Source of the DNA: Thermoplasmatales archaeon
GTDB taxonomy: Archaea > Thermoplasmatota > Thermoplasmata > Thermoplasmatales > Thermoplasmataceae
Length of the DNA: 64,000 nt
Direction: 5' to 3'
NCBI GenBank assembly: GCA_014874365.1
Contig: JACWAH010000001.1
Span: forward strand, 2,314-66,313
Position numbers and translations under genes: made by a program
The notes under the pieces: generated by a model
Seen by the model: only the letters and a program-made list of their open reading frames with translations
Databases searched by the model: none
Told to the model about the DNA's origin: nothing
In this document: piece after piece, positions 307 to 16,665 of the stretch
Layout: the number at the start of each line of letters is the position of its first letter
How positions within the stretch are numbered: position 1 is the first letter of the stretch

Positions 307-1198
307 ATGAACAGTTTTGTGGTTGGAATAGATCTTGGAGAAAAGGAAAGCTTAGCATTGTGTATTACACCAGATGGAGACATAAGGCAACAGTTCAAGT
401 TTCCCATTGCCTCTGGTTATTCGGATATAGCTGTGGCACATCCCAGGGAACTTTCATGGATAACAAAGTCAAGGAAGAAGAATGACAGGGGGGATTCGCT
501 GGAACTTGCGAAGCTAAATCTCATCTGGATGATCCCTGAATCCCACTTCCTTGAAGAGTAGGAGAGGATATTCCGGGATCTTCTGATTCAGCGAGTGAAA
601 CTTGGAAAATCTGTTTCTTCAGTGAAGAACAGGATCATCGGTTACCGAAGAGGAAAGACGTATTCAGCAAGCTTCCAGAAACCCGTGACAACTTCTCCAC
701 AGCGAGGTTGAAGGCTATTAAGGGGATCAGATTCGGGAATCAGAAAGACCTGGTTCTGAAGGCGATGCTTGATCGCCTTGAATTCCTTGAGCATCATATT
801 AAACCTCTGGGATACACAGATAAAGAAGATGGCAAAGGAATCCGAGGAGATGAAATTCCTCATGTCCATTCCAGGCATCGATTACTATATCGCTTCCCTG
901 ATCTCATCGTACATCGGTGACATTAAGCAATTTAAGAGCAGTGACAAACTGGCATCATTACGGGCAAAAAGGATTCATCCTCAAAAAAGAGAAGAGACCA
1001 CATGTCAAAGGAGGGTGCACAGACTGCAAGATGGCATTATCAACTGCAGTCGGCACAATCATGATGTTCAATTAACCCATCAGGGAATACTATGTTTCAG
1101 TTTAGAATAAGAAGGAATCCGGAAAGCTTGCACATGTGTCGACCATGCGAAAACGGATCAGGATGATATTCACAGTGCTTACAGAAAGGAAGGAGTGA
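307..1198 (+). mobile_element. Degraded IS110-family insertion sequence; transposase frame broken into at least three pieces
   Basis: ORF 307-561 begins MNSFVVGIDLGEKE (IS110 DEDD-type N-terminus). ORF 769-1110 carries MSIPGIDYYIASLISSYIGDIKQFKSSDKLAS (IS110 C-terminal HhH region). The tail ...STMRKRIRMIFTVLTERKE is in a third frame and ends near 1198. Stops and frameshifts separate the pieces. Confidence 0.75.
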
Positions 1199-1356: not shown

Positions 1357-2697
1357 ATGTTCGGTACTGCCAGAATTAACGCCAGTCCTGAAGATGACAT
1401 TAAGCAACTGCCCGATTCGGAGAGGGTTAAAAAACCAATTTCCCAGTTCTACCTGTGGTTTGGTGCGAATCTTACTATTGCAGACTTTGCCCTTGGTTTT
1501 CTTCCAGTCATCTACTTCAATTTAAATTTCATATACAGCATCCTTTCTCTTTTAATAGGAACTCTGGCAGGTGGAATTTTACTTGCTTCAATGAGCGTCA
1601 TGGGGCCGAAAACAGGGCTGCCGCAAATGATGGTTGGCAAGCACGCTTTTGGCAGAAAGGGTGGCAACGTAATGTCGCTGCTGCAGTGGTTGAATACAAC
1701 CGGCTGGCTTACAGTTAATACCATTATTGCTGCGACAGCCCTTTCAATATTAATTTACACAACCTCAGGATATTTTTTCGTAATTCCCGTTATTGCTGTA
1801 GCAGTACTTGTTTTGCTGCTCGCATATTTCGGGGCTAACCTTATCCATACATTCGAGAAAATAATGTCCGTGGTACTCGGCGCTCTATTTGTTTACCTAG
1901 CAATCTTTACAGTGACAAATTATTCTGTCCCGTTTTACTCAGGCGGTTTTAACCTCGTGGGCTTCGCGTCGACGATAGCACTTTCATTCTCATACATCAT
2001 GAGTTGGGGTCCATACGCCTCTGATTATTCCAGATATGTTAGGCCAGAAAGCCGAGGTACGTTCTCCTTCACTCTCGCCGGGGCAGTCATATCCACCTTT
2101 GCAGTTGAGGTTGTTGGTGTACTAGTAGAGCTTGCAATTCCCACTTATGAGACTGCACCCGGTACTATTGTCTCACTAATGGGGAAGTATGCTGTTATAG
2201 GACTGATAACACTTATTCTTGGAGGACTCGCTGCGAATTCACTCAACCTTTATTCCAATTCCATGTCATTGAAGACATTCGGAATTAAGGCTTCAAGGAA
2301 GCTCATCCTGTTCGTTGTAACCATTATCTCTATTGGTCTGTCAATCCTGGGCTACGCCAACTTCTATCAATATTACCAGGACTTCCTGTACGTACTCGAT
2401 TACTGGATAACTCCTTGGCTGGGAATTATGATCGTTGACTACCTGCTTTCAAGAGGAAATCTGACAAAAGTATCAGACGGATATAATGTCCGGACATTCA
2501 TAGCGTACCTGGTTCCAATAGGCATCTCCATACCGTTCATTAATCCAATATCTCAGCTGGAAGGCCCGATTTCCGTACTGCTTGGCGGAGTGGACATCAG
2601 TTACTTTGTTTCCTTCTCCCTGTCCATGCTTTTTTTCTATATTCTTCGCAGGAAAGACTTCATCGCACCGGGGAAATCTGGATCAACAGATAGCTGA
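1357..2697 (+). CDS. NCS1-family nucleobase (purine/cytosine-type) permease
   Basis: 446-aa polytopic ORF. Segments FYLWFGANLTIADFALG and MMVGKHAFGRKGGNVMSLLQWLNTTGWLTVN look typical of cytosine/purine/allantoin permeases, with roughly 12 hydrophobic segments. Confidence 0.8.
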   Translation: MFGTARINASPEDDIKQLPDSERVKKPISQFYLWFGANLTIADFALGFLPVIYFNLNFIYSILSLLIGTLAGGILLASMSVMGPKTGLPQMMVGKHAFGRKGGNVMSLLQWLNTTGWLTVNTIIAATALSILIYTTSGYFFVIPVIAVAVLVLLLAYFGANLIHTFEKIMSVVLGALFVYLAIFTVTNYSVPFYSGGFNLVGFASTIALSFSYIMSWGPYASDYSRYVRPESRGTFSFTLAGAVISTFAVEVVGVLVELAIPTYETAPGTIVSLMGKYAVIGLITLILGGLAANSLNLYSNSMSLKTFGIKASRKLILFVVTIISIGLSILGYANFYQYYQDFLYVLDYWITPWLGIMIVDYLLSRGNLTKVSDGYNVRTFIAYLVPIGISIPFINPISQLEGPISVLLGGVDISYFVSFSLSMLFFYILRRKDFIAPGKSGSTDS

Positions 2698-2759
2698 ACA
2701 TGCATCGCGGCTAAAAATGGTGAGTAAAAGAATTAAACTGATGTGCATGATCCTGGAAG

Positions 2760-3245
2760 ATGATACTTTCTGACTCGACAATAAATGAACTGGTCAAGGG
2801 GGGAAAGCTCATTTCTCGAAACTTCAGCCCGCAATCGTTGACGCCAAACGGATATGATCTGCGCGTTGGTACCATAAAAGGCTCATCCGGCAATATAACT
2901 GACCATGCAGAGATTGAGCCAGCTGAACACTTTCTCGTTTCATCCCAGGAGGAAATTTATTGTCCCACCGACGTGTGTGCCCAGATGTTCACAAGGTCAT
3001 CCTATGCGCGTAAGGGGATTATTGGCAGCTATGGGTTTGTTGACGCTGGATTCAGAGGTGAACTAACGCTCGCATTTTACAATTCCTCGAATGAGGTCTT
3101 CTCGCTTAAAGCGGGAGAACGGATTGCACAGATTATTTTCCATCGCATTGACCGGGAAGTTGAACAGAGTTATGAAAAGAGGTCCGGAAACTACCAGAAC
3201 AGTTCAGGAATCACTCTTAGCAGGGACACTTCCAAAGGGAACTGA
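2760..3245 (+). CDS. dcd: dCTP deaminase / dUTPase-fold protein
   Basis: 161 aa. N-terminus MILSDSTINELVKGGKLI, then PNGYDLRVG and GFVDAGFRGELTLAFYN, characteristic of the trimeric dUTPase-fold dCTP deaminases. Deaminase and dUTPase activity cannot be told apart by eye. Confidence 0.75.
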   Translation: MILSDSTINELVKGGKLISRNFSPQSLTPNGYDLRVGTIKGSSGNITDHAEIEPAEHFLVSSQEEIYCPTDVCAQMFTRSSYARKGIIGSYGFVDAGFRGELTLAFYNSSNEVFSLKAGERIAQIIFHRIDREVEQSYEKRSGNYQNSSGITLSRDTSKGN

Positions 3246-4611: not shown

Positions 4612-4676
4612 CTCTCTGTTTTCTCTTGAGGGGGTTTAACCAACGCATTATTTTTCTGTGCTCAATTATGAATGGA
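4612..4676. repeat. Left copy of an imperfect ~65-bp direct repeat (partner at 7833-7897)
   Basis: ctctgttttctcttgagggggtttaaccaacgcattatttttctgtgctcaattatgaatgga aligns with cagctgttttcgcatgagttgggtttaaccaacgcattatttctctgtgcccaattatgaatgat. The core of about 46 bp has only 3-4 mismatches. It lies just upstream of the Toprim gene start. Confidence 0.8.
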
Positions 4677-4829
4677 CAATTTCTAACAATCTTTTAAATT
4701 TTGCATATTCATTGCTATTTCTGCGACATCCAGATAAAGTCGCGGGCTAAGTCAACATGAAACTGTTTTTCCTATCGTTTCTTTTCCCATATTCTATCCT
4801 TTCCCACGGGATTTCCATAGCTCACGCTA

Positions 4830-5211
4830 TGATCCTCTTTTTTTCACCCATATGAAACAGATCAGGTTGTGTCCCGGGCACATGAACATGTTCTTGACCC
4901 TCACTCTCGGTATCGTAGTAACGAATACATGACCGTCATGGAATATTCCCTTCATGACGGAATCCCACTGGACTCCGCAGAAGATCAGGGTGCACATGTT
5001 CTTCTCACTTATGACATATCTCTTCCTTATTCTCATTCGTTACAGGATGCACAGCATTGATCAATCCATATCATTGCAATCCGTACAGAATATACTCTCT
5101 GATGTCAGACTGCAGTATATCATATCCGGTAAGAGTGTCAGGAAGAAGCTTGACTCCAGGAATCCGGATGCACTCTGCATGGCAGAGAGGCTGAACCTCA
5201 TATCAGTGTGA
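4830..5211 (+). pseudogene. C-terminal remnant of a DDE transposase (IS4/IS1634-like), frameshifted
   Basis: Fragments ...GIVVTN..., MEYSLHDGIPLDS... and TESHWTPQKIRVHMFFSLMTYLFLILI lie in different frames. They resemble the conserved C-terminal block of IS4-superfamily transposases. No N-terminal half is present. Confidence 0.5.
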
Positions 5212-5828
5212 TATGCACTACTGGAGATGTTGAGAGGGCAGCCTCTCTAATTGCCTATCTGGAATCTATCAGCGTTAAAAATCGTGTAAACTCAAGATAG
5301 TATAGAAATAAGATTAATATATGTGATAGTAATAAATTCACAGGTAGATCGCTTAACCTCATACGGGTCTGGCCTGAGTTAGAACCACCGAAGACGGTGA
5401 AAGCCAAAAAAAGCGATTATTGCCTAAGATGGTGGCGGTTCATAAATTGAAACATAAAGCGAAAAACTAGACTTAATTACGTCATATTAGTGGGAATAGA
5501 TACCTTTGTCAAATAACGGTTTTTGTAAAATGCGGAATATTATAAATTAAACGGTTGCATTTAACGAAAGATGGAGTCATTTAGATTGATTAGTTCAATT
5601 TGAAAGCGGTACTTCAAGACTGAGCATAACCATATAATCATTCGACAAGATGGTAAGTAAACTAGGATGCATAATTTGCTATATGTATAATGAGTTGCCA
5701 TCAGCATATTAGATTGAGTATTTTTGTGAATTTGTAATTTAGTATATAGTCTCATCTGTCTGGGACATTTGTATTTTTAGAAATTTCAGGTGGATACAAT
5801 TTTGTGAACTGTCGCCGGGAGGATAAAA

Positions 5829-6740
5829 ATGTCAAGAGAAAAAGAGGTAAAAACCTCGGAAAAAACTGGCGACTTTGTCGCAAACAGATCGAGAGATCTC
5901 AGCAGCAATACAAATAGGACGGTAAGAAAAATAGAATCTGTAAATTGGCACTTATGGGAAAGTTGTAATTACAAATGCAAATTCTGCTTTGCTACGTTTA
6001 AAGGCATTAAGGAGAGATTGCCCAAACAAGACGCGTTATTAATTCCGGGCTTGCTGGCAAACGCTGGAATCAGGAAGATTAACTTTGTTGGCGGTGAACC
6101 GCTTCTCTGTCCATACATTAGCGACCTGTTATCCATTTCTAAGAACTTAGGAATGGTAGTCTCTGTAGTCACGAATGCGACTTTGCTAACAAAGGATTTC
6201 CTGGAACATAATGCGCGTTATCTTAATTGGGTTGGCATAAGCATTGACTCTTCCAGTGAGATGACGGAAAAAGCGTTAGGAAGAGGAACTGGAAAACATA
6301 TAGAAATGGCAGTATCTCGCGCAAAAATGGTGAAGCAGTTCGGAATTAGGCTCAAGATCAACACAGTTGTCACGAGCTTGAATTACCTCGATGACATGGG
6401 GCCACTTATCTCTGCTCTTCAACCAGATAGATGGAAGGTTTTCCAGTTGCTTCTCATTGCAGGGGAGAATGACATCACAGCAGGAAACCTTCTGGCCACA
6501 AGTGAACAATTTAAAGAATTCGTAACGAGACACAAGCAGTTCAAACCAATCGTAGAGGACAACAATGCTATGACTGGATCATACCTTATGGTTGATCCAC
6601 TTGGTCGCTTTTTCCAGAACTGGGATAATAAGTACGTTAGAAGCGATCCTATCACTTCCGTGGGTGTTTCGCACGCAATCGAGCAGGTTGGATGGGACAA
6701 GCACAAATACATCAAAAGGGGAGGGAGTTACGAATGGTAG
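5829..6740 (+). CDS. Viperin-like radical-SAM enzyme (prokaryotic viperin, pVip)
   Basis: 303 aa. CNYKCKFCF (CxxxCxxC), KINFVGGEPLL, RWKVFQLLLIAGEN, SYLMVDPLGRF and C-terminal KRGGSYEW are collinear with the animal viperin motifs CNYKCGFCF, RWKVFQCLLIEGEN, SYLILDEYMRF and KRGGKYIW. GGAGG at 5818-5822 precedes the ATG. Confidence 0.88.
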   Translation: MSREKEVKTSEKTGDFVANRSRDLSSNTNRTVRKIESVNWHLWESCNYKCKFCFATFKGIKERLPKQDALLIPGLLANAGIRKINFVGGEPLLCPYISDLLSISKNLGMVVSVVTNATLLTKDFLEHNARYLNWVGISIDSSSEMTEKALGRGTGKHIEMAVSRAKMVKQFGIRLKINTVVTSLNYLDDMGPLISALQPDRWKVFQLLLIAGENDITAGNLLATSEQFKEFVTRHKQFKPIVEDNNAMTGSYLMVDPLGRFFQNWDNKYVRSDPITSVGVSHAIEQVGWDKHKYIKRGGSYEW

Positions 6741-7324
6741 ATCTCGTTTACCAATTCCTTCCACACAGCAAAGCGTCGATTTTTGTGGATGGTCCCAACT
6801 TTTATGTTGGATCAGTTCACTTCATTAGAAATAATAACTTGGACAATAGCCCAACGGATATTCTTTTTGGGATTGTTAATTACTATAGCGAGCACCATAA
6901 AATAGAAGGAATGGAATACTTTGAAAGCCTTGCACCTATGAAAGACCCAAGAAGGTATGCAGGGCAGAGCAGATATCTTGAACAGGTCAGGAAATACGGA
7001 TTCTTAGTTCATTCAACACTTCCTGCAGAGTTCATTAATCCTTATACCGGCTCAATAGAGTACAAAGAAAAAGGTGTAGATACCGGATTGAGTGCACGAA
7101 TGACACGATTAGCGGCGGAGGGTAAGTACGAAACTGCAATTGTGATCGGTGGCGATGGGGATCTCTACGAACCCATAATGGAAGTTATTGACATTGGTAA
7201 AAATGTGGAACACACTTACTACACCGAAGATCTGAGCCACAGATTCGAGAATATTCTACATGAGAAGTATTGTTTTACCACTATACGCAGCATACTTTCA
7301 GATTCTATCTTTGTAACATATTAG
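6734..7324 (+). CDS. NYN/LabA-like (PIN-related) nuclease-fold protein, translationally coupled to the viperin-like gene
   Basis: Start taken at ATG 6734 (MVDLVYQF...), which overlaps the upstream stop in ATGGTAG. Motifs IFVDGPNFY, KGVDTGLSARM and AIVIGGDGDLYEP match the NYN/LabA signature (VDG.N ... KGVD ... GDGDF.P). The track ORF from 6692 is a 5' extension inside the viperin gene. Confidence 0.75.
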   Translation: MVDLVYQFLPHSKASIFVDGPNFYVGSVHFIRNNNLDNSPTDILFGIVNYYSEHHKIEGMEYFESLAPMKDPRRYAGQSRYLEQVRKYGFLVHSTLPAEFINPYTGSIEYKEKGVDTGLSARMTRLAAEGKYETAIVIGGDGDLYEPIMEVIDIGKNVEHTYYTEDLSHRFENILHEKYCFTTIRSILSDSIFVTY

Positions 7325-7832
7325 TGTTATACTTAGCGTCCTTCTATGAAGAAGGTCTTTGGACATTCTCCCGAGACCTTTTTCCTTTTTTATTTTTATT
7401 GCCGCGTCCTGTTTCACTGTTCTCACCGGACTCTTTGATCTTTCAGACATGGCCTTCATCTTTCTTTCAGTGAGTATGTCAATACTATCAATGAATTCCA
7501 TGTTCCTGAAGGGCATCACGTATATTGTTCCTAGGCCGAAACAAATTGAATCGCTTAGCCTTGAATGTAGAGGATATAAACGAAACAAAATGTCCTTTGA
7601 TAAATGGTATCCCGAATCTTATGTATTTATAAAGGATACCTAGACTGGAACATTCTCCCATGGCCTGGTATCAGGTATAAGTATTACACAAAATTCGGAT
7701 ACTATCGGATACAAGAATGGGATTCTTACAGGAAGTTAAAACTCTTAACTTCGAAATTTAAGTATTCCTTGGGTTCAAGCCCGTAATTAGTCTTTCCATT
7801 GGCGCCAATATTAGCGTGGAGGGCGCTTTTCA

Positions 7833-7897
7833 TCAGCTGTTTTCGCATGAGTTGGGTTTAACCAACGCATTATTTCTCTGTGCCCAATTATGAATGA
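7833..7897. repeat. Right copy of the imperfect ~65-bp direct repeat (partner at 4612-4676)
   Basis: Same orientation and alignment as the left copy. Together the two copies bracket the transposase remnant, the AT-rich leader and the viperin-NYN pair. Confidence 0.8.
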
Positions 7898-7998
7898 TAA
7901 GTTTTTATGTTACGAACTTGAACAGATAACTGTAGAATTCCACATTGGAATTACCTTCATTTAGCTTCGACAGCGAGCTAAACGCATTTTATCCAGGG

Positions 7999-8523
7999 TC
8001 AAAGATCATAGAATTCCACTATTCTTCGGGCAGATTCCTCTGGTGCAGTTATGGAAGTGTCTATAGAGAGACTTTTGAGGAAGGGAATTCTGGTTATATT
8101 GTACCTTGACATTAATTTCAGCAATTCATCTCTATCTGTCAGTTTCAAATGATTATTCCGTGAAGATTCGCCTATCCTTTGCAAGAGCGTTTCTATCGGG
8201 CAGAAAAGGTACACGAACATCACCTTCCCTCCTGCATCAGTGATTACATCGATTATTTTCTTCACATATTCATCATCTTCGTTCAGGGCATAGACAAAAG
8301 TAAATATGATATCAACAGAATTGATCGCAGCCTCACGAAATATGTCCAATCGCAGGTTGTACACAATCCTCTTGAAAGGGGGAGACCCAAAAGGAAAAAC
8401 AGCTGCTGCTGCCAGGTTAGTGATATTATTCTGAAGCAGTTTGTATCCCGTTTTTTCGCTCAGGATTTCAGCCACCGTTAACTTTCCCGCTGCAGGTGGG
8501 CCATATATGAATACAAGATTCAT
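7999..8523 (-). CDS. P-loop kinase-fold protein (AAA_33 / shikimate-kinase-like), substrate unknown
   Basis: 174 aa. N-terminal Walker A is MNLVFIYGPPAAGKLTVAE. The small single-domain size is typical of nucleotide or small-molecule kinases. No specific subfamily was recognised. Confidence 0.65.
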   Translation of the reverse strand: MNLVFIYGPPAAGKLTVAEILSEKTGYKLLQNNITNLAAAAVFPFGSPPFKRIVYNLRLDIFREAAINSVDIIFTFVYALNEDDEYVKKIIDVITDAGGKVMFVYLFCPIETLLQRIGESSRNNHLKLTDRDELLKLMSRYNITRIPFLKSLSIDTSITAPEESARRIVEFYDL

Positions 8524-8726: not shown

Positions 8727-8904
8727 AGTCGGCAGGCTATTCGGTATCTTTTTTTGTGTTTAGGCACTTGGTAAAATCGTGAACTTTTCATTTTGTTTTA
8801 CCTCTTATTGTTATTTTAATACTTTCATAAATCCATATTGATTTGCCTGTTTGCGCGGGGCAACACTATTATTACGAATTATGATTGTCGTGCAGAGGCC
8901 ACCA

Positions 8905-9336
8905 ATGATAGACATTACGGAGAAGGATATTGTTGAGCGGAGGGCTGTTGCCGAAGGGAAGATTAACCTGAAGCGATCAACGATTCAGCAAATAAGGGAT
9001 CTGAAAATCAAAAAGGGGGATGTACTCACAGTTGCAAGAGTCGCTGGAATTGATGCAGTGAAGAATACACCTTCATTGATACCATTCTGCCATCAGATCC
9101 CAATTGAATTCGCAGATGTTACTTTCGATGTGGGCGATACATGGATTAAGTGCAGGTGCGAAGTGAAGGCGATTTATAAAACCGGGGTGGAAATGGAATC
9201 GCTGTCAGGTGTTATGGGCTCCCTGCTCACTATCTGGGATATGGTAAAGTATCTCGAGAAAGACTCTACAGGAAATTATCCCGAGACAGGAATCTCGGAG
9301 ATAAGAGTTATTCAAAAAGTTAAGGGTCAAAAATGA
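8905..9336 (+). CDS. moaC: Cyclic pyranopterin monophosphate synthase MoaC
   Basis: MIDITEKDIVERRAVAEGKI..., VARVAGIDAVKNTPSLIPFCHQIP and GVEMESLSGV are MoaC hallmarks. Start chosen at ATG 8905; the track ORF starts at an upstream TTG (8851). Confidence 0.9.
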   Translation: MIDITEKDIVERRAVAEGKINLKRSTIQQIRDLKIKKGDVLTVARVAGIDAVKNTPSLIPFCHQIPIEFADVTFDVGDTWIKCRCEVKAIYKTGVEMESLSGVMGSLLTIWDMVKYLEKDSTGNYPETGISEIRVIQKVKGQK

Positions 9337-9812
9337 ATCATGGTCATTTTCATGCAGAGAAGAAACTCAGGTTCGCAATAATACTTGTATCCACTACGCG
9401 AACGCTGAAAGAGGATGTCTCTGGTGAAAAGCTTTCAGCCTTGATCGGTAGTTATGCAGAGAGCATTGTAAGGGACAGTTCCCATGATGATTCGGATGAA
9501 ATACTGGGAGCCCTGAAAAGGGCTCTCCCCATCTCCGATGTGGTTGTGTTCATTGGAGGGACCGGGCTCAGCAAGTATGACCTTACAACGACTACGCTAA
9601 GAAAAATCAGTGAAAGAGAAGTCTCTGGTTTTGGGGAGCTCTTTCGATCAAGTTCAGGAAATCAATACGCCTATCTGTCTGATGCGACTATGTTTCTGTA
9701 TTCAGGACGAATTATATGCTGTTTGCCAGGCAGCCCGGATGCCATGGAAGTGGGTGCTGAAGTGATAAAGAAACTGGTAAGTCATGCGTTTCATGAGCTT
9801 CATAAGGAATAA
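9333..9812 (+). CDS. moaB: Molybdenum cofactor biosynthesis protein MoaB/MogA family
   Basis: 159 aa. FAIILVSTTR..., VVVFIGGTGLSKYDLT and CLPGSPDA are MoCF_biosynth domain motifs. There is a 4-nt overlap with moaC. Confidence 0.85.
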   Translation: MNHGHFHAEKKLRFAIILVSTTRTLKEDVSGEKLSALIGSYAESIVRDSSHDDSDEILGALKRALPISDVVVFIGGTGLSKYDLTTTTLRKISEREVSGFGELFRSSSGNQYAYLSDATMFLYSGRIICCLPGSPDAMEVGAEVIKKLVSHAFHELHKE

Positions 9813-9891
9813 CAGCCTGCATTGAACCAGGACGAATTTAGGCGAGAACCCGTTGAATCAGAAAGTAGTGTTTAGAACAATACCTGTCAGG

Positions 9892-10620
9892 CTAGCGCAA
9901 TTTGTTCCCGCAAGTCCTGCAGTCAGGATTCCTCTGTGTTTCTATGGTTTCAACAGTGTTCTTCAGTGAATCGGCAATCTTTATGAATCCCGTGATTTCG
10001 CTTCCCATCAATATCGATACTGATGTGGATACGCCAATGGATGCCGTCATGGATACTGCGGGAGGAAATATTCCAATCTGAGAACATGACCCTTCTTCCA
10101 TTTTTGGGATGTTCAGGCAATCCAGGCAGGCGGTTTTTCCCGGCACCACTGGAATCACCTCTCCCCAATATTGCAAAGAAGAGGTCATTACAAATGGGAT
10201 TCCCAGTTTCACGCATGCACGATTCAGCGCGAATCTTGCCGCGAAATTATCAGTGCCATCATAAACAAGCGAAGATCCTTCGATAATCCCGGACACATTT
10301 TCAGCGTCGAGATGTTTGTTCACAACCTCCACCTGCATTTCCCTGTTGATGAGCTTCAACGCTCCTGCTGCTTCAACTACCTTCTGCTTTCCAACGGAAG
10401 ATTCACCGTAGAGGAACTGCCTGTGCAGGTTGTTTTCCCTGACAACATCATCATCCACGATCCTGAGTTTTCCAATGCCCATTCTTGCAAATAACTCTGC
10501 TGAAACCGATCCATTACCCCCAATGCCAACAATGGTTACCATAGATTGTGAAAGCTTTTTCTGGCCGCTGATTGAAATTTCCCTTAACGCAATCTGTCCC
10601 GAATACCTGTTGATATTCAC
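9892..10620 (-). CDS. moeB: ThiF/MoeB/UbaA-family E1-like adenylyltransferase
   Basis: RYSGQIAL...GQKKLSQSMVTIVGIGGNGS (nucleotide-binding GxGxxG), LRIVDDDVV..NLHRQ, and C-terminal CLDC...CRTC zinc motifs. It sits next to moaD. Confidence 0.8.
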   Translation of the reverse strand: MNINRYSGQIALREISISGQKKLSQSMVTIVGIGGNGSVSAELFARMGIGKLRIVDDDVVRENNLHRQFLYGESSVGKQKVVEAAGALKLINREMQVEVVNKHLDAENVSGIIEGSSLVYDGTDNFAARFALNRACVKLGIPFVMTSSLQYWGEVIPVVPGKTACLDCLNIPKMEEGSCSQIGIFPPAVSMTASIGVSTSVSILMGSEITGFIKIADSLKNTVETIETQRNPDCRTCGNKLR

Positions 10621-10720
10621 CGCAACTCACCACTCATCTGGCTGTTCTTGTTGGGAATCCATCGTAACCAATGCAAGTGTTCAACCTGGCAGCACGGGAG
10701 AAAAGCTATCCAGCCGACTT

Positions 10721-10957
10721 TCAGCCCCCGCTCACCGGCGGGAATATTGCCACAGTGTCGCCTTCGGCAAGGATGGTGCTGTCATCCGAATATCTCTCAT
10801 TCACCGCTACCATCATCCCCTTCCTGGACAACTCAGGATGCAGATCATTTATCACTTTCTTGAGTTGCATTATGTTCGTTCCTTCGAACTCCAGGATCTC
10901 ATTTGAAGTGCCGGTAACCTCGGTGAACATCGCAAAATATCGCACGCTAAGCTTCAT
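10721..10957 (-). CDS. moaD: Molybdopterin synthase sulfur-carrier subunit MoaD (ubiquitin-like, C-terminal GG)
   Basis: 78 aa ending ...GDTVAIFPPVSGG. It lies between moaA and the E1-like gene. Confidence 0.85.
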   Translation of the reverse strand: MKLSVRYFAMFTEVTGTSNEILEFEGTNIMQLKKVINDLHPELSRKGMMVAVNERYSDDSTILAEGDTVAIFPPVSGG

Positions 10958-11951
10958 CTTCCAATCTCCAGTAAGGCTCCCTCTTACTTACTGCAGTCCT
11001 ATACGCCCCGGACAGGTCCTGATCACTCTTTTCATTTCTCAGGATTCCCATAATGTCTGTCTGGTTATCATTTGTCATGAGACAGGTCTTGAGTTTTCCT
11101 CCAGAAGTAACCCGCAGCCTGGTGCAACTCATGCAGAATCCGGAATTGTGCATGGGCCTCACGAATTCTATCTTCAGTGGTCGCCCATTGTGATCGATCG
11201 TATACTTGTATCTTTCATGCAGGATGTTCTTCTCCCGGTTCAGTGACCTGGCTGCGATTTCTTTCTCCATCGGGTAGATGTCATAATGATATCTTCTGTA
11301 GAAGTCCTGTTTTTCGCCTTCCTTTGTTGCTTCCAGCTCGATAAGCTGCAGTGTAACGCCTTCTTTTGCGCAAAGGTCCATCATTTCCGGTACTTTGTCC
11401 ACATTAACTTCCTTCAGTACTACAAAATTGAGCTTAATCTGGCTCAAACCTGCCTCTTTTGCAGCGGCAAGCCCTTCCAGCACAATATCCATGGCATCCA
11501 CGCCGGTGATCTGTATGAATCCCGCAGGATCAGATGCGTGCAATGAGATATTCACCCTATCCAGGCCCGCTTCCTTAAGGTCCTTTGCAAGTTTTCCCAG
11601 CAATACTCCATTGGTGGTCAGTGAAAGATCTCCCTTAACATGTGGTCTTGTTCTTGAGATTATTTCAAGGATGTCTCTCCTCAGAAGGGGCTCTCCACCT
11701 GTGAACTTGACCCTTGTCATTCCATTCATTGCCGCTACCTGGACTATCCTCTCTATCTCCTCAGGGGTCATTTCCTGGCTGTTGATCCCTGTGCCCTCCA
11801 TGTGGCAGAATATGCAGGAAAAATTGCATACAGCGTTCAACTGAATTCTAAGGCTGTTCACCGTGCGCCCATAACTGTCCACTGGAGGTTGGACCAGAGT
11901 GTTACTATCCATGGACATATTTGGCAAAATTGATCTGTTAATCAATGCCAA
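10947..11951 (-). CDS. moaA: GTP 3',8-cyclase MoaA (radical SAM)
   Basis: LRIQLNAVCNFSCIFCHMEG (CxxxCxxC), VKFTGGEPLLRRD, and C-terminal GFCMSCTRLRVTSGGKLKTCL (second cluster). Confidence 0.92.
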   Translation of the reverse strand: MALINRSILPNMSMDSNTLVQPPVDSYGRTVNSLRIQLNAVCNFSCIFCHMEGTGINSQEMTPEEIERIVQVAAMNGMTRVKFTGGEPLLRRDILEIISRTRPHVKGDLSLTTNGVLLGKLAKDLKEAGLDRVNISLHASDPAGFIQITGVDAMDIVLEGLAAAKEAGLSQIKLNFVVLKEVNVDKVPEMMDLCAKEGVTLQLIELEATKEGEKQDFYRRYHYDIYPMEKEIAARSLNREKNILHERYKYTIDHNGRPLKIEFVRPMHNSGFCMSCTRLRVTSGGKLKTCLMTNDNQTDIMGILRNEKSDQDLSGAYRTAVSKREPYWRLEDEA

Positions 11952-12349
11952 GATTCTCCACCTTCCAGGAATATATCCTTCTTCCAGATAGGAGCCTTAG
12001 TTTTTACAAGGTCCACAAACTCAGAACATGCACCGAATGCTTCTTTTCTATGCTCTGAACTGACTGCAACAAAGAATGAGGTTTCTCCCGGTCCCAGGAA
12101 TCCGACCCTGTGAAAAGCCACCAGATCAACCAGGTTGAATTTCCTGATGACGGCCTCGCCTGTTTCAGAAAGCACCTTTTCCGCCATCTCCCTGTAACAA
12201 TCGTATTGCAATCCCCTGAGCCTCTTCCCTTTTTCGTTATCCCTGACAACACCTGAAAATGATACAACTGCACCCTGGCCCCTGTCTTCCAGACGAGCCA
12301 GGTAAGATTCTCTGGTTACAGGGGACTCCTCAATTTTCACCCACATCAC
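11942..12349 (-). CDS. moaE: Molybdopterin synthase catalytic subunit MoaE
   Basis: GAVVSFSGVVRDN..., FHRVGFLGPGETSFFVAVSSEHRKEAF and KTKAPIWKKD are typical MoaE motifs. Confidence 0.9.
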   Translation of the reverse strand: MMWVKIEESPVTRESYLARLEDRGQGAVVSFSGVVRDNEKGKRLRGLQYDCYREMAEKVLSETGEAVIRKFNLVDLVAFHRVGFLGPGETSFFVAVSSEHRKEAFGACSEFVDLVKTKAPIWKKDIFLEGGESWH

Positions 12350-14370
12350 TTTACCCTGGACCTTGCGTTGACGATCTCTTCAGGCGAAACCGGAGTTTTA
12401 CGTATCCTGATTCCGGCACTCCTTTCTATCGCCCTAACTAAAGCAGTCGGGACACCAATTGTGGGGGATTCCCCGACACCCTTTGCACCATGTGGAAAGC
12501 GGGATGGTACTTCCTCCAGATAAACGTCGATGTCTGGGGACTGCACAGAATTAAGTACCCCGGAATCTGAAAGTGAGGCTGCCATCAGCTGGCCATCCTG
12601 GTCAAACTCAATATTTTCACTCAGCACCTGCCCGACTCCCTGAACAGCGCCTCCCTTGATCTGTGAAACTACCACATCGGGAACAAGCGCTTTTCCAACG
12701 TCATAATACGCCTTGAGTTTGGACACCCTCACGTTTCCGGCTGCGTCTGCATCCGCCACAGCAAGGTTGGCACAGAATGAGATGAGCATCCCTTTTTCGT
12801 TTGCGTACTCATATTCATCGTAATCTCCTGAAAGAAGAGCCCTGGCAGTATAGGCACCTTTGTCCTTCTTGACGTGAGCAATTACCTTATCTGCGACCTT
12901 TAACAGCGCATTGGCTCCAACTATTGCAGATCTGCTTCCCCAGCTTCCCACCCCTTCCTTCAGCATATCGGTATCGCCAAGCTGTAATTCAATTATCGAA
13001 GGGTCAACGCCGAATTTCCCGGAAAGGAGCTTTGCTACCCAAAGGTCATGCCTCTGGCCATGAGCGTTACCTCCCAGCCAGACATTTATTCTTCCTCTTT
13101 CAACTTTTATCCTGCAGCTTTCACCGTCCGAGACAGCAGGAATCAGGGCAAAACAAGAGATTCCAGGCTTAGATTCCCTTGCCAATCGCCTGTATTCCAT
13201 TTTCTCAAACGCCCTGGCCATAAAGCCGGCAGATGCCTCTATCTCCATTCCTGTTGGAGACCTGAATTTATCTTTAGCCGCATTCAGGAGCCTGATATCT
13301 AAAGGGTCTGCCCCGATTTCATCCGCCAGAAGGTCAATCATCCTCTCCATCATAAACGATGCTTCCGGTCTTCCTGCTCCCCTGTAGGGTCCCTGCTCAA
13401 CCTTGTTTGTCATAACCGAGCGCGCGTGGAAATATGCATTTGGTATTGCATAGGGCCCGGTGATCTGGAAAGCTATCCAGCCTGAAGACCAGGAAGCGCC
13501 CCCATAAGCACCGGCGTCCACTATGACGTCACCTGAAATTCCCTTTATAACGCCAGATTTCATTGCGTGGATCCTCATGTTGCCAACAACTCCTCTCCCC
13601 GGCCTGGACGCCATAAGATGTTCCCTTCTCGTCTCAATCCACTTGACCGGGACCTTCAATTTCATTGCAAGTGAGGCAGCTACGATATATTCAGGATATA
13701 CTCCTCCCTTGAGCCCAAAGGCACCACCAGTATCTGTCTGAATTACCCTGACTGATTCTTTACCTAGATTCATGGACTCGCAAATTCCGTCTCTCACACT
13801 GTGGGCAGATTGAGTTGGAGTCCAAACTGTCAATTTAGTACCATCGTATGCAGCTACAATTCCCCGGGTTTCCAGGGGATTGGTGGCCACCCTCCTGTTT
13901 TCGAGCCTGTCTTCCAAAACTATCTCAGCTTCTCCTGCGGAAAATTCCTTCCCGACATATCTGTCTGAGATAATGTTAGTCTTTACGCCCGGAATGACGG
14001 GTTCCGAATTCAAAGCTTCAACGGGATCTAAAATTGGTTTCAGAGGGTCATAGTCAATTTCCACGCTGTCCAGATTATCCTCCGCTTCATACCGGTTCTT
14101 CCCCGTAACTGCCGCTATTGGTTCACCCAGGTATGCAGCAAATTTGCTTGCAAGAACAGGAGCCCTCAAGCTGAGGTCTTCTTCCGTGGCCCCTTCTCCG
14201 GCTGATGCCATGAAATAAGGGAAATCCCTGGCAGTGTAGCCCCCTTTGACGTACAACAACTTTGCGCGGGAATAGTTGCTTCTGGCAAAGGCTATGTGAA
14301 CCATTCCAGGGAAAGAAATATCATCAACGAATCTTCCCTTCCCGTTAACTATATCCGTAATGCTGCTCAT
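12346..14370 (-). CDS. Xanthine-oxidase-family molybdoenzyme, large (molybdopterin-binding) subunit; CoxL/CutL-like but not a form-I CO dehydrogenase
   Basis: 674 aa. It has Ald_Xan_dh_C-type segments. The active-site loop reads EQGPYRGAGRPEA (AYRGAGR type), not AYxCSFR. It is in an operon with 2Fe-2S and FAD subunits. Confidence 0.88.
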   Translation of the reverse strand: MSSITDIVNGKGRFVDDISFPGMVHIAFARSNYSRAKLLYVKGGYTARDFPYFMASAGEGATEEDLSLRAPVLASKFAAYLGEPIAAVTGKNRYEAEDNLDSVEIDYDPLKPILDPVEALNSEPVIPGVKTNIISDRYVGKEFSAGEAEIVLEDRLENRRVATNPLETRGIVAAYDGTKLTVWTPTQSAHSVRDGICESMNLGKESVRVIQTDTGGAFGLKGGVYPEYIVAASLAMKLKVPVKWIETRREHLMASRPGRGVVGNMRIHAMKSGVIKGISGDVIVDAGAYGGASWSSGWIAFQITGPYAIPNAYFHARSVMTNKVEQGPYRGAGRPEASFMMERMIDLLADEIGADPLDIRLLNAAKDKFRSPTGMEIEASAGFMARAFEKMEYRRLARESKPGISCFALIPAVSDGESCRIKVERGRINVWLGGNAHGQRHDLWVAKLLSGKFGVDPSIIELQLGDTDMLKEGVGSWGSRSAIVGANALLKVADKVIAHVKKDKGAYTARALLSGDYDEYEYANEKGMLISFCANLAVADADAAGNVRVSKLKAYYDVGKALVPDVVVSQIKGGAVQGVGQVLSENIEFDQDGQLMAASLSDSGVLNSVQSPDIDVYLEEVPSRFPHGAKGVGESPTIGVPTALVRAIERSAGIRIRKTPVSPEEIVNARSRVK

Positions 14371-14371
14371 T

Positions 14372-14881
14372 TTATCTCCTCACCAATTCCGGTGATTCCG
14401 GGAGCTTTTCGCGAGCAGTTTCCCCTTTTACGGATTTTACTGCTTCAACTATTCCATGGTAACCTGTGCATCTGCATATGTTTCCAGAGATAGCCTCCCT
14501 GATCTCCTTTTCGTTGGGGTCCGATTTTTTTCTCAGCAACGAATAGCTGGATATGAGCATCCCGGAAGTACAGAATCCGCATTGCAATCCATGCTTCTCT
14601 ATAAATTCCTCCTTGAGCCTTTTCATCAGCGGTTCTTCTCCCAGCCCTTCTAGGGTTCTTACTTCCCTGTCGTCAGCCTGGACGGCAAGTACCGTACAGG
14701 ATTTTACAGGTTTACCGTCAAGCAGGACAGTACAGGCTCCGCAATTGCTCGTATCGCATCCCATATGAGTTGCTGTAAGATCTGCAAATTCTCTAACAAA
14801 GTCCAGAAGCAGGGTTCTGGGCTCTACCTCTCTCTCGAATTTCCGTCCATTGAGCTTTATGTTTACCTTTACGTTCTTCAT
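14372..14881 (-). CDS. Xanthine-oxidase-family enzyme, small [2Fe-2S] subunit (CoxS/CutS-like)
   Basis: 169 aa. GCDTSNCGACTV and LQCGFCTSGM...NICRCTGY are the two 2Fe-2S binding motifs. Confidence 0.92.
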   Translation of the reverse strand: MKNVKVNIKLNGRKFEREVEPRTLLLDFVREFADLTATHMGCDTSNCGACTVLLDGKPVKSCTVLAVQADDREVRTLEGLGEEPLMKRLKEEFIEKHGLQCGFCTSGMLISSYSLLRKKSDPNEKEIREAISGNICRCTGYHGIVEAVKSVKGETAREKLPESPELVRR

Positions 14882-15759
14882 GTTAACCCAGCCTCCGCTC
14901 TCTTGTACGCCAGTGCAAGCGCTTCGGTCACAAGATAAGAAGCAATATATCTCTTATATTCTGCTGAGGCGAAGAAATCGGATTCCACTGATATGCCGTT
15001 TTTCACTATATTATTGATTTCTTTCAGCAATCCTGTATTGATCTTCTTTCCCTGCAGATGGGAATCAACGGATTTCATCAGATAAGGCCTGGGAAAGATG
15101 GAACCCAGTACAGTCCTGGAACTCAGGCAATTCATATCATCGTCCAGGTGGAGTACCGTCGCTACAGAAGCAAGTGAAAAATCTCCGGAACTTTTTGCCT
15201 GTTTCATGAATGCCGAAGTTGCGTTTCCGCCATTCCTCGGTATTCTTACTGCGGTAAGCACCTCATTATGCGACAGTCCTGTTGAAAAAGCCCCCTGGAA
15301 GAATTTATCTGATTTCTCGACCCTCTGGTTCCCATTCCCGGATATCACGAACTCTGCATCCAGTGCAGTCATGACCGGTGGAAGGTCATTTCCCGGATCA
15401 GCATGTGAAAGGTTCCCGCCAACAGTTCCCATGTTGCGGACCAGCGGATCGGCTATGCCCGCAGCAGCTTCATGTAGCGCAGGAATATATTTTGATACAG
15501 ATCTGTTCTCTTCCAGTGATCCAACCTTGTAGGATGCGCCAATTTCGATAAATCCATTATCTTCCCTGAAGGAATCTAATGCCGCAATTCCACCTATGTC
15601 AACAAGCAGGTCTATGGTCATGATTCTTGTTTTAAGCAGGGGAATCAAGCTTTGTCCACCCGCCAATACCTTGGAATTCTCAACTTCAGACAATGCTTTA
15701 ACTGCGTCCCGGATCGATGAGACCTTTAAATAATCAAACTTCCCAGGTGTTGATCCCAT
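14878..15759 (-). CDS. Xanthine-oxidase-family enzyme, medium FAD-binding subunit (CoxM/CutM-like)
   Basis: 293 aa. VLAGGQSLIPLLKTR and GTVGGNLSHADPGNDLPP are FAD_binding_5 motifs. Confidence 0.9.
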   Translation of the reverse strand: MGSTPGKFDYLKVSSIRDAVKALSEVENSKVLAGGQSLIPLLKTRIMTIDLLVDIGGIAALDSFREDNGFIEIGASYKVGSLEENRSVSKYIPALHEAAAGIADPLVRNMGTVGGNLSHADPGNDLPPVMTALDAEFVISGNGNQRVEKSDKFFQGAFSTGLSHNEVLTAVRIPRNGGNATSAFMKQAKSSGDFSLASVATVLHLDDDMNCLSSRTVLGSIFPRPYLMKSVDSHLQGKKINTGLLKEINNIVKNGISVESDFFASAEYKRYIASYLVTEALALAYKRAEAGLT

Positions 15760-15762
15760 AAA

Positions 15763-16665
15763 TTACTGATTATCTCTTCCTATTACCGTTTTTTGATCTT
15801 TCTTTTTGACATTTTTGTTCTTGTGAGCGATTATCTCTGAGATTATACTGATGGCTATTTCCTGTGGAGTTACTGAACCGATGTCCAGTCCCACGGGTGC
15901 GCGTATTCTCCCGATGAATTCTTCCGGAACGCCTTTCTCCTTCAGGTCGCCGAAATCCTTTTCAATCCTTTTCCTGCTTGCCATAAGGCCAATATATCCT
16001 GCTTTCGAGTTCTGGATACCAGTAAGCACGTCTAAGTCCCTTGTACCCTTAGTAAGTACTACGATGGAATCGCTCTCAAGGGTTTCAAATTTATTCAAAT
16101 CAAAGCCCAGATCTTCATGGAAAACATCAGGATTATCGTCCGTTTTTGTCGGGTTTATTAGCACAGTAGTGAAGCCAAGCCATTTGGCAAGATATAAGAG
16201 GCTCGATTGTACCTCGTCCCGGCCTCCCTGTCCAATGACAATTATCCTGCTTTGTCCTCCATATGGGTCCAGGAATATCTCGAGATTGCCGCCGCAGAAG
16301 GTTTCCACAAAAACTTCATTTTCAGCTGCTTTTTGCTGTAGTTTCAGTCCTGTCTCTGCTTCCTCAAGATGCACTTTCACAATTATGGGGGCGCCAGTTT
16401 CCATAACCTTTGAAATATACGGCGTCACTGCTGATTCGGGGCAACCCCCTCCAAATCCACCGGCAAGAACCTTCCCTTCAGGCGAGAAGAGTGTTTTGAA
16501 ACCCGGTTTTGCCAGTGTGGAACCTTCACTTTTTACTACCGTCGCCAGGAGAAACGCTTTTCCATCGTTTTTCAATTTGGAAACCAATTCGAGCGGATCG
16601 TTGTTCACAGCTTTAAAAGTCATCATGGTATTAATCCATAACTGTTGATTGGATTGAATTGCCAT
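15763..16665 (-). CDS. XdhC/CoxI-family molybdoenzyme maturation chaperone
   Basis: 300 aa. N-terminal LATVVKSEGSTLAKPG (XdhC_CoxI) and central IIVIGQGGRDEVQSS Rossmann-like XdhC_C segment. It lies directly downstream of the three enzyme subunits. Confidence 0.85.
   Translation of the reverse strand: MAIQSNQQLWINTMMTFKAVNNDPLELVSKLKNDGKAFLLATVVKSEGSTLAKPGFKTLFSPEGKVLAGGFGGGCPESAVTPYISKVMETGAPIIVKVHLEEAETGLKLQQKAAENEVFVETFCGGNLEIFLDPYGGQSRIIVIGQGGRDEVQSSLLYLAKWLGFTTVLINPTKTDDNPDVFHEDLGFDLNKFETLESDSIVVLTKGTRDLDVLTGIQNSKAGYIGLMASRKRIEKDFGDLKEKGVPEEFIGRIRAPVGLDIGSVTPQEIAISIISEIIAHKNKNVKKKDQKTVIGRDNQ

Follow-up and report, generated by a model that had tools for sequence, protein, structure and literature searches.

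In this study, a stretch of 64,000 nucleotides (nt) from a Thermoplasmatales archaeon (the window, by which its whole length is meant) was found to carry a gene for a prokaryotic viperin (pVip), a radical-S-adenosylmethionine (radical-SAM) enzyme, whose last codons overlap the start of a gene for a predicted LabA-type NYN protein with a PIN-like nuclease fold. Sequence comparison suggests that this archaeal viperin-NYN pair is rare but probably genuine, a two-enzyme version of a known defence. Members of the pVip family make ddh-nucleotides (3'-deoxy-3',4'-didehydro nucleotides), which are RNA chain terminators, and the account that we favor on balance is that of a co-translated two-effector antiviral operon, in which the ddh-nucleotide chain terminator would act together with an endoribonuclease. 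The production of ddh-nucleotides, the RNase activity and its RNA target, any interaction or regulation between the two proteins, and the antiviral function are all properties that we infer.

The assignment of the upstream gene to the prokaryotic viperins lies far beyond chance. Its open reading frame (ORF) at 5829-6740 (+ strand; 303 amino acids [aa]) extends from ATG 5829 to TAG 6738-6740, is preceded 6 nt 5' of the ATG by a Shine-Dalgarno site, GGAGG, read from the sequence at 5818-5822 (+), and contains the motifs CNYKCKFCF, INFVGGEPLL, RWKVFQLLLIAGEN, SYLMVDPLGRF, and a C-terminal KRGGSYEW. The original prediction, which a model had made from the letters of this stretch, called the product a viperin-like radical-SAM protein and reported the same motifs, coordinates, and GGAGG; all of these are present, and the call is borne out by the NCBIfam equivalog model NF038283 (viperin_w_prok), with which the protein scores 299.3 bits (2.3e-89) against a curated cut-off of 180. 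The pVip models of PADLOC (4.5e-86) and the Radical_SAM family of Pfam (1.6e-17) match the same ORF, while the 184.9 bits obtained with the animal-type model TIGR04278, below its cut-off of 450, are expected for a prokaryotic member. Solved viperins match residues 25-303 collinearly over the full length at 1e-51 to 1e-43, with 9dfu, 6b4c, 7n7i, and 5vsl (mouse RSAD2) among them at 1e-51 to 1e-48, these four aligning with residues 37-303. In an alignment of 38 pVip sequences, the CxxxCxxC cysteines (C46/C50/C53) and the GGEP motif (G88-G89-E90-P91) are invariant, as are R297, G299, and Y301 of the C-terminal RGGxYxW, W303 being nearly so. Homologues at E<=1e-20 number 1702, the identity to hundreds of pVips amounts to 43-66%, and the best match among GTDB species genomes belongs to Thermoplasmatota.

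Profile searches and structure modeling assign, likewise far beyond chance, the downstream ORF (6734-7324, + strand; 196 aa, ATG 6734 to TAG 7322-7324) to the LabA-type NYN/PIN-like proteins, with a predicted nuclease fold and an intact four-Asp site. The motifs IFVDGPNFY, KGVDTGL, and VIGGDGDLYEP are present, and residues 13-161 match Pfam family PF01936 with 33.2 bits, above the family's gathering score of 24.2. A profile built from 70 NYN sequences retrieved Protein Data Bank entry 2qip at 1.6e-19; the same entry was the top and only strong Foldseek match (E 4e-8, TM 0.60/0.71) of an AlphaFold2 model of the protein (predicted local distance difference test, 91.1; predicted template modeling score, 0.87), and T5 5'-exonuclease was also among the matches. 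As a classification of PIN-like domains (PMC5499597) gives 2qip as the structure of the NYN.COG1432 group, the best structural and the best profile match both fall on the representative of the LabA-like group, and the NYN/LabA membership proposed earlier is upheld by sequence profile and by fold. The presumed catalytic residues, D19, D116, D141, and D143, vary little or not at all in the alignment of 70 sequences, and the four Asp residues of the site are invariant across all pVip-linked NYNs. Where studied, NYN/PIN-like domains are metal-dependent endoribonucleases, MARF1 being an example (bioRxiv 10.1101/2024.01.29.577857). At the sequence level, the window NYN protein is an orphan without close relatives: a word-indexed search of 5.8 billion proteins retrieved the protein itself alone, and a full HMMER search of 1.84 billion cluster representatives gave a best non-self match of 8e-11 at about 30% identity, the matches being generic NYN proteins of 170-200 aa. 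A Pfam scan found no OST-HTH domain in it.

The two genes meet at a coupling junction (6720-6740, + strand), in which GGAGGGAG at 6720-6727 is followed by ATGGTAG at 6734-6740, the NYN start codon being nested in the codon for the last Trp and the stop codon of pVip. This overlap of 7 nt and the start at ATG 6734, both part of the original prediction, are confirmed in the sequence. The conserved viperin KRGG motif encodes the element GGAGGGAG, which lies 5' of the NYN ATG as an internal Shine-Dalgarno-like sequence; an alternative in-frame start, ATG 6692, has a weaker Shine-Dalgarno sequence, and no later start codon keeps the domain intact, since the first beta-strand of the NYN fold starts at residue 12. 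Because the NYN start lies inside the last viperin codons, a ribosome can re-initiate there and the two proteins can be made together. Two A/T-rich TATA-like boxes at 5737-5783 (+) (TTTAGTATATA at 5737-5748 and TATTTTTA at 5772-5779) were read from the sequence as a candidate archaeal promoter, and an oligo-T tract, TTTTTCCTTTTTTATTTTTATT, at 7379-7400 (+), 55 nt past the NYN stop, as a candidate archaeal terminator. Oligo-T tracts serve as transcription terminators in archaea, and the two elements would fit a bicistronic archaeal transcript.

The pairing of pVip with NYN recurs in other genomes. In a closest-relative sample of ten pVip contigs (59-66% identity; L-numbers denote pVip loci), an NYN gene lies directly downstream of pVip in five, namely, the window, L088, L089, L005/L006, and L222. 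The latter four, referred to here as group A, are archaeal metagenome contigs whose pVips are 62-66% identical to that of the window. In L088, L089, and L005, the NYN gene starts with TTG or GTG at the same spot in the terminal Trp codon (7-nt overlap), in L222 a gap of 42 nt separates the two genes, and the L005 partner carries an added OST-HTH domain. Identities inside group A amount to 66-92% for the pVips and 80-100% for the NYNs, which argues that the pair has been co-inherited. BLASTP detects no similarity between the NYNs of this group and the window NYN (in an alignment, about 17% of residues are identical), and a hairpin insert of the latter (residues 95-112) is absent from them. Since these NYNs are so unlike that of the window, though the accompanying pVips are 62-66% identical, non-orthologous NYN genes appear to have come to occupy the same slot, and this we regard as the strongest argument for a functional link.

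Broader samples, comprising 80 GTDB species genomes, 80 JGI metagenome contigs, and IMG/VR contigs with a real viperin, were examined by hidden Markov model and Pfam scans, and NYN was located directly downstream in two loci from different phyla, L033 (Bacteroidia) and L051 (Competibacteraceae). Both loci encode a fusion of viperin and cytidylate kinase, 62% identical from one to the other, whose gene shares a 4-nt ATGA overlap with the NYN gene behind it, and the L033 NYN carries OST-HTH. In both (L033:632-5883 and L051:5124-7952), a response regulator of the REC+LytTR type (252 aa; the two are 43% identical) lies 5' of the fusion and NYN, and in L033 an ORF with a His_kinase domain is also found upstream and one for a D12 adenine methyltransferase downstream; these loci look like a transcriptionally regulated multi-gene viperin system. 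Looser arrangements were encountered in L131, in which a 435-aa NYN-containing protein is encoded two genes downstream of pVip, and in L009 (Methanobacteriota), in which two NYN genes lie upstream on the opposite strand, while no NYN was found in the IMG/VR viral loci with a real viperin. The adjacency is therefore not confined to the window, being present in L088, L089, L005/L006, L222, L033, and L051 and, in looser form, in L131 and L009.

The pair can be placed among several known systems. The window pVip is a full-length member of the stand-alone pVips (NF038283; in PADLOC, 'viperins not associated with kinases'), which databases count as a single-gene system; in the window, by contrast, its gene and that of a second enzyme are translationally coupled. 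According to a preprint (10.1101/2023.09.13.557418), viperins have kinases nearby in 12% of bacterial and 5% of archaeal cases, and the viperin-kinase modules, i.e., pVip-kinase operons and fusions and the vertebrate RSAD2-CMPK2 pair, likewise have a tightly linked downstream partner; in the NYN-linked bacterial loci L033 and L051, the pVip itself is fused to a kinase. The window partner, however, has a nuclease fold and is not a kinase, and the nearby kinase-like ORF is convergent and outside the islet described below. Another parallel is offered by the HicA and RelE RNase genes that adjoin some pVips and for which cooperation in defence has been proposed (Gerdes 2024, mBio, PMC10865869). There, too, a small RNase gene stands directly beside pVip with no obvious antitoxin, and an adjacent co-oriented RNase-fold gene recurs in the window, L088, L089, L005, L222, L033, and L051; on the other hand, NYN has an unrelated fold and is taken for a metal-dependent endonuclease, not a ribosome-dependent or double-stranded-RNA-binding-domain (dsRBD)-like toxin, and the window partner gave no HicA or RelE family matches. 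HEC-09 is an NYN/MARF1-like predicted RNase with conserved Asp residues that is embedded in Hma (helicase-methylase-ATPase) systems (bioRxiv 10.1101/2024.01.29.577857). Its PADLOC profile matches residues 14-154 of the window NYN at 2.6e-8, but the partner in the window is a viperin and no Hma genes are present (the neighbors being pVip, an insertion sequence [IS] fragment, and housekeeping genes), and the other pVip-linked NYNs have no HEC-09 match. The MARF1-like combination of NYN and OST-HTH is seen in the L005 and L033 partners, whereas the window protein lacks OST-HTH. In the literature searched, to which the original pVip paper (Bernheim et al. 2021) did not belong, no link of viperin to NYN, LabA, OST-HTH, or a prokaryotic PIN-like protein was found. 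By its family assignment, NYN is the third putative RNase family at the pVip partner position, after HicA and RelE, is well supported by comparison between genomes, and represents a variant and not a new category. The suggestion in the original prediction of an undescribed variant thus holds for the NYN link, but its novelty is smaller than supposed, as the adjacency of HicA and RelE had already been published (PMC10865869).

The two-effector operon that we favor would operate as follows. By homology, the viperin is expected to convert a nucleoside triphosphate (NTP) into the 3'-deoxy-3',4'-didehydro-NTP, and this would end RNA chains made during viral infection. A ribosome finishing viperin would re-initiate on NYN, both proteins being made from one mRNA in a fixed ratio. 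The NYN protein, a presumed small LabA-type metal-dependent endoribonuclease with a four-Asp site, would most likely be a second, RNA-degrading effector beside the chain terminator, cutting viral transcripts or those ended prematurely, whose modified 3' termini could not be extended. Such a role would be analogous to that of the HicA and RelE RNases beside other pVips.

A number of observations weigh against this proposal. The NYN gene is dispensable, given that the close relatives L003, L004, and L007 (a second sub-clade), L090, and L091 are without it. Among 167 unbiased pVips (those with at least 450 bp downstream in GTDB species genomes, JGI metagenomes, and IMG/VR), NYN is adjacent in two (about 1%). 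Elsewhere in these flanks, 3 of about 1,280 genes are NYN genes, and against that background the enrichment does not reach significance (Fisher p = 0.10). The overlap of 7 nt is not NYN-specific and in part follows from the conserved viperin C-terminus (xW-stop -> NTG), as the same overlap occurs with many partners and even with spurious ORFs of 39-43 aa. The NYN.COG1432/LabA group was uncharacterized as nucleases in the 2017 classification, LabA being a regulator (PMC5499597), and HEC-09, the nearest defence candidate, gave no phage protection when tested (bioRxiv 10.1101/2024.01.29.577857). Finally, neither an antitoxin nor a sensor that could keep a free RNase in check was identified.

These points bear differently on the pairing and on the junction. 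A significant enrichment is obtained against assumed genome-wide NYN frequencies of 0.03-0.1% alone (p = 0.001-0.012), so the conservation of NYN as an immediate neighbor, put forward for testing in the original prediction, is supported by recurrence and only weakly by statistics (2/167, with p = 0.10 against the internal and 0.001-0.012 against the assumed background). We hold the association to be real mainly because the occurrence of NYN is repeated, overlapping, and non-orthologous, and the pairing is, from these comparisons, probably not due to chance, while constituting a minor architecture among pVips. As for the junction, 15 of 113 downstream ORFs, the window included, start at NTGGTAG, NTGGTGA, or NTGGTAA, with partners from different families, and a further 18 of the 113 start at NTGA overlaps; starts in the terminal Trp codon are found in L005, L009, L028, L029, L031, L038, L044, L053, L075, L088, L089, L103, L111, L154, and the window. 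The pVip C-terminus KRGGxYxW-stop doubles as a GGAGG-like Shine-Dalgarno sequence and an NTG start codon. Since the junction signals lie in the pVip 3' end and are shared by partners of various families, coupling appears to be general to pVip operons and not specific to NYN.

The presence of the two genes side by side can also be explained in other ways. They may be independent genes that share a mobile defence islet, the NYN being a self-contained HEC-09-like RNase or toxin-like protein that does not cooperate with viperin. This explanation, which we regard as fairly unlikely, would accommodate the match of the window NYN to the stand-alone PADLOC candidate HEC-09, the earlier prediction of NYN-OST-HTH as a stand-alone RNA-degradation system (PMC5499597), the rarity of the adjacency in the broad sample with its weak enrichment over the internal background, and the varied downstream neighbors of close pVips; it is harder to reconcile with start/stop overlaps in at least six loci from Archaea, Bacteroidia, and Gammaproteobacteria, with the co-inheritance of the group-A pair across 66-92% pVip divergence, and with at least two unrelated NYN subfamilies in the same slot. 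Alternatively, NYN may be a regulator and not an effector, which in the manner of LabA could cleave or bind operon or host mRNAs and so hold viperin expression or ddh toxicity in check, or could sense viral RNA. LabA, the founding member of NYN.COG1432, does work in negative-feedback regulation (PMC5499597), the pVip-linked NYNs of L005 and L033 bear the OST-HTH/LOTUS RNA-binding domain, and the bacterial versions stand within a regulated locus with a REC-LytTR response regulator. Yet the window NYN is without an RNA-binding accessory domain, and the four catalytic Asp residues are kept in every partner, which favors catalysis over mere binding, so that a regulatory role seems doubtful to us.

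Translational coupling would favor co-assembly at a fixed ratio, and no separate antitoxin accompanies NYN, nor does one accompany HicA and RelE, for which the question of restraint has been raised (PMC10865869). Both facts would be in keeping with viperin serving as the antitoxin of a toxic NYN, which it would hold inactive by binding and which would be released to abort the infection once a virus inhibits or degrades viperin; in another form of this model, ddhNTP would activate NYN directly as a second messenger. We consider such a guard or toxin arrangement improbable, as it is purely inferential, LabA-type NYN proteins are not known toxins, and many close pVips function without such a partner. 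It is very improbable, in our estimation, that NYN supplies substrate, i.e., that RNA breakdown started by NYN yields nucleoside monophosphates from which a nucleotide kinase and viperin would produce more ddhNTP. The position of NYN directly after a viperin-cytidylate-kinase fusion in L033 and L051, the kinase-like P-loop gene 675 nt from the window pair, and a 5'-nucleotidase after another fusion (L066), an indication that nucleotide-pool enzymes do join pVips, speak for such a route, whereas NYN/PIN-like enzymes are endonucleases that do not release mononucleotides, and the kinase-like gene of the window lies outside the islet and belongs to a family that is not pVip-linked. A bolder version of the pairing would, in these lineages, make viperin one half of an obligate two-enzyme system and not a chain-terminator producer sufficient on its own; in such a system, NYN would recognize ddh-terminated or stalled RNA or be ddh-activated, or viperin would restrain NYN until attacked by a virus. 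We think this unlikely; if true, it would explain the repeated recruitment of unrelated NYNs, and elsewhere of HicA/RelE, behind viperin, and in the version based on ddh recognition or activation the product of viperin would be an immune signal as well as a poison.

The surroundings of the pair show that it sits on a small mobile islet, not in a large defence island. A repeat search (family D1) located a 54-nt direct repeat, a candidate attL or duplicated target, with its left copy at 4632-4685 (+) and its right copy, 87% identical to the left, at 7854-7907 (+); the repeat is unique to these two sites in the 64 kb, as is its 22-nt core (0 expected by chance), and the pair lies inside the 3.2-kb segment between the copies. 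The islet also holds a degraded IS1634-family transposase fragment (C-terminal 85 aa; 4954-5211, + strand), for which the NCBIfam match to NF033559 is weak (E 1.1e-4, profile positions 403-471 of 483) and a Pfam match was not obtained. Its GC content is 40.1% compared with 44.3% for the window, and it has long A/T-rich non-coding stretches. Of the repeat-bracketed, transposase-scarred, AT-rich island described in the original prediction, the bracketing repeats thus stand, the transposase scar is present but weak (E 1e-4), and the AT richness is modest. No integrase was found around the islet, and no Rfam or tRNA match was found in the islet or the whole window. The flanking genes are housekeeping genes encoding a cytosine permease, a dCTP deaminase-like protein, RNase Z, an archaeal Toprim protein, and molybdenum-cofactor proteins. 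The archaeal Toprim family and the best matches of pVip and of the kinase-like gene described next point to an archaeal host, probably a member of Thermoplasmatota.

Convergent to the pair and outside the repeats, a P-loop nucleotide-kinase-like protein of 174 aa is encoded at 7999-8523 (-). We considered this ORF as a viperin kinase and regard it as probably not part of the system: its matches to AAA_18, dNK, and (d)CMP kinase are below threshold, no PADLOC match was found, the similarity to the viperin-fused kinase of L051 is weak (25% identity, E 4e-5), and its family ('AAA / chloramphenicol-phosphotransferase-like') is widespread (363 homologues), the closest named homologue (56% identical) lying in a variable region with IS fragments of a Thermoplasmataceae metagenome-assembled genome with no pVip nearby. 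A small Lys/Arg-rich ORF at 7298-7516/7588 (-), which is convergent, overlaps the NYN 3' end, and encodes 72 aa in the sister contig L001, gave no significant family match; it is the sole antitoxin candidate, its role is unsupported, and no recognizable antitoxin stands beside NYN. At the left end of the window, IS110-family transposase fragments (DEDD_Tnp_IS110, Transposase_20), split by frameshifts or stops, occupy 307-561 and 769-1110 (+). The cytosine/purine permease and dCTP deaminase/dUTPase-like genes (1357-3245) are situated about 3 kb 5' of the viperin gene; as the deaminase-like gene has no match to a PADLOC defence family, it probably serves housekeeping pyrimidine metabolism and is not part of the system. 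On the other side, a molybdenum-cofactor cluster at 8851-16665 encodes MoaC, a MoaB-like protein, a ThiF-like E1, a ThiS/MoaD-like protein, MoaA, and MoaE (Pfam, sister contig L001), and is adjoined by ORFs of 674, 169, 293, and 300 aa whose translations alone suggest a putative aerobic-type molybdo-hydroxylase (large/small/medium) and an XdhC-like protein.

The partners of other pVips were surveyed with Pfam in 112 ORFs that lie directly downstream in the same direction, followed by clustering. Nucleotide kinases were the commonest (13 loci), followed by DUF2325-like proteins of about 100 aa (9 loci), SF1 helicases (AAA_11/AAA_12; 8 loci), an unannotated family of about 95 aa (7 loci), and NYN (5 loci); that kinases are the main pVip neighbors, as the original prediction had it, agrees both with these counts and with the literature (bioRxiv 10.1101/2023.09.13.557418). 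The SF1 helicases, of about 880-920 aa, directly follow pVip in Asgard, Methanobacteriota, and other loci (L009:6876-9521, L011:6899-9655, L015:6841-9624, L087:6809-9451, and L121:5906-8632). The DUF2325-like genes (weak similarity, 90-105 aa) overlap the pVip stop in nine bacterial loci from Myxococcota and others (L028:6810-7124, L029:6819-7082, L031, L038, L042, L053, L103, L109, and L111). The family of about 95 aa is found in Bacteroidota-like loci, behind either pVip or a pVip-kinase fusion (L063:6930-7214, L067, L078, L135, L139, L144, and L163), with one sub-threshold DUF4258 match as the sole hint, and may correspond to the small toxin-like partners of the literature. In L066 (2855-3301), a gene for a 5'(3')-deoxyribonucleotidase (NT5C), a nucleotide-pool enzyme, directly follows a viperin with a C-terminal extension.

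Among the close pVip relatives without NYN, the neighbors vary or are lacking; they include a 929-aa NERD/HEAT protein, a 305-aa and a 387-aa protein, and a PD-(D/E)XK protein in convergent orientation. The first of these, downstream of pVip in L007 (1308-4097), has weak N-terminal NERD-nuclease and HEAT matches, the 305-aa protein downstream of pVip in L003 (7140-8057) has no Pfam match, and the PD-(D/E)XK nuclease stands beside pVip in L090. These assignments hint that nuclease partners of several folds accompany this clade of close pVips. The overlapping ORFs of 39-43 aa in L003 and L007 were considered as NYN remnants and dismissed; they show no similarity to NYN and are a by-product of the xW-stop junction.

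To conclude, pVips are catalogued as single-gene defences, with nucleotide kinases as the only well-studied partners, and a recurrent coupled NYN lends weight to the view that chain termination and RNA cleavage often go together. Most archaeal viruses rely on the host RNA polymerase, and a second effector could help to explain how an archaeal viperin discriminates or suffices. Eukaryotes have NYN+LOTUS proteins (MARF1) and NYN/PIN-like antiviral RNases and also inherited viperin, so that the co-occurrence of NYN and viperin in eukaryotes may be seen, speculatively, as an evolutionary parallel. For the large LabA/NYN.COG1432 family, which is almost without assigned function, the pairing with viperin offers a concrete hypothesis.

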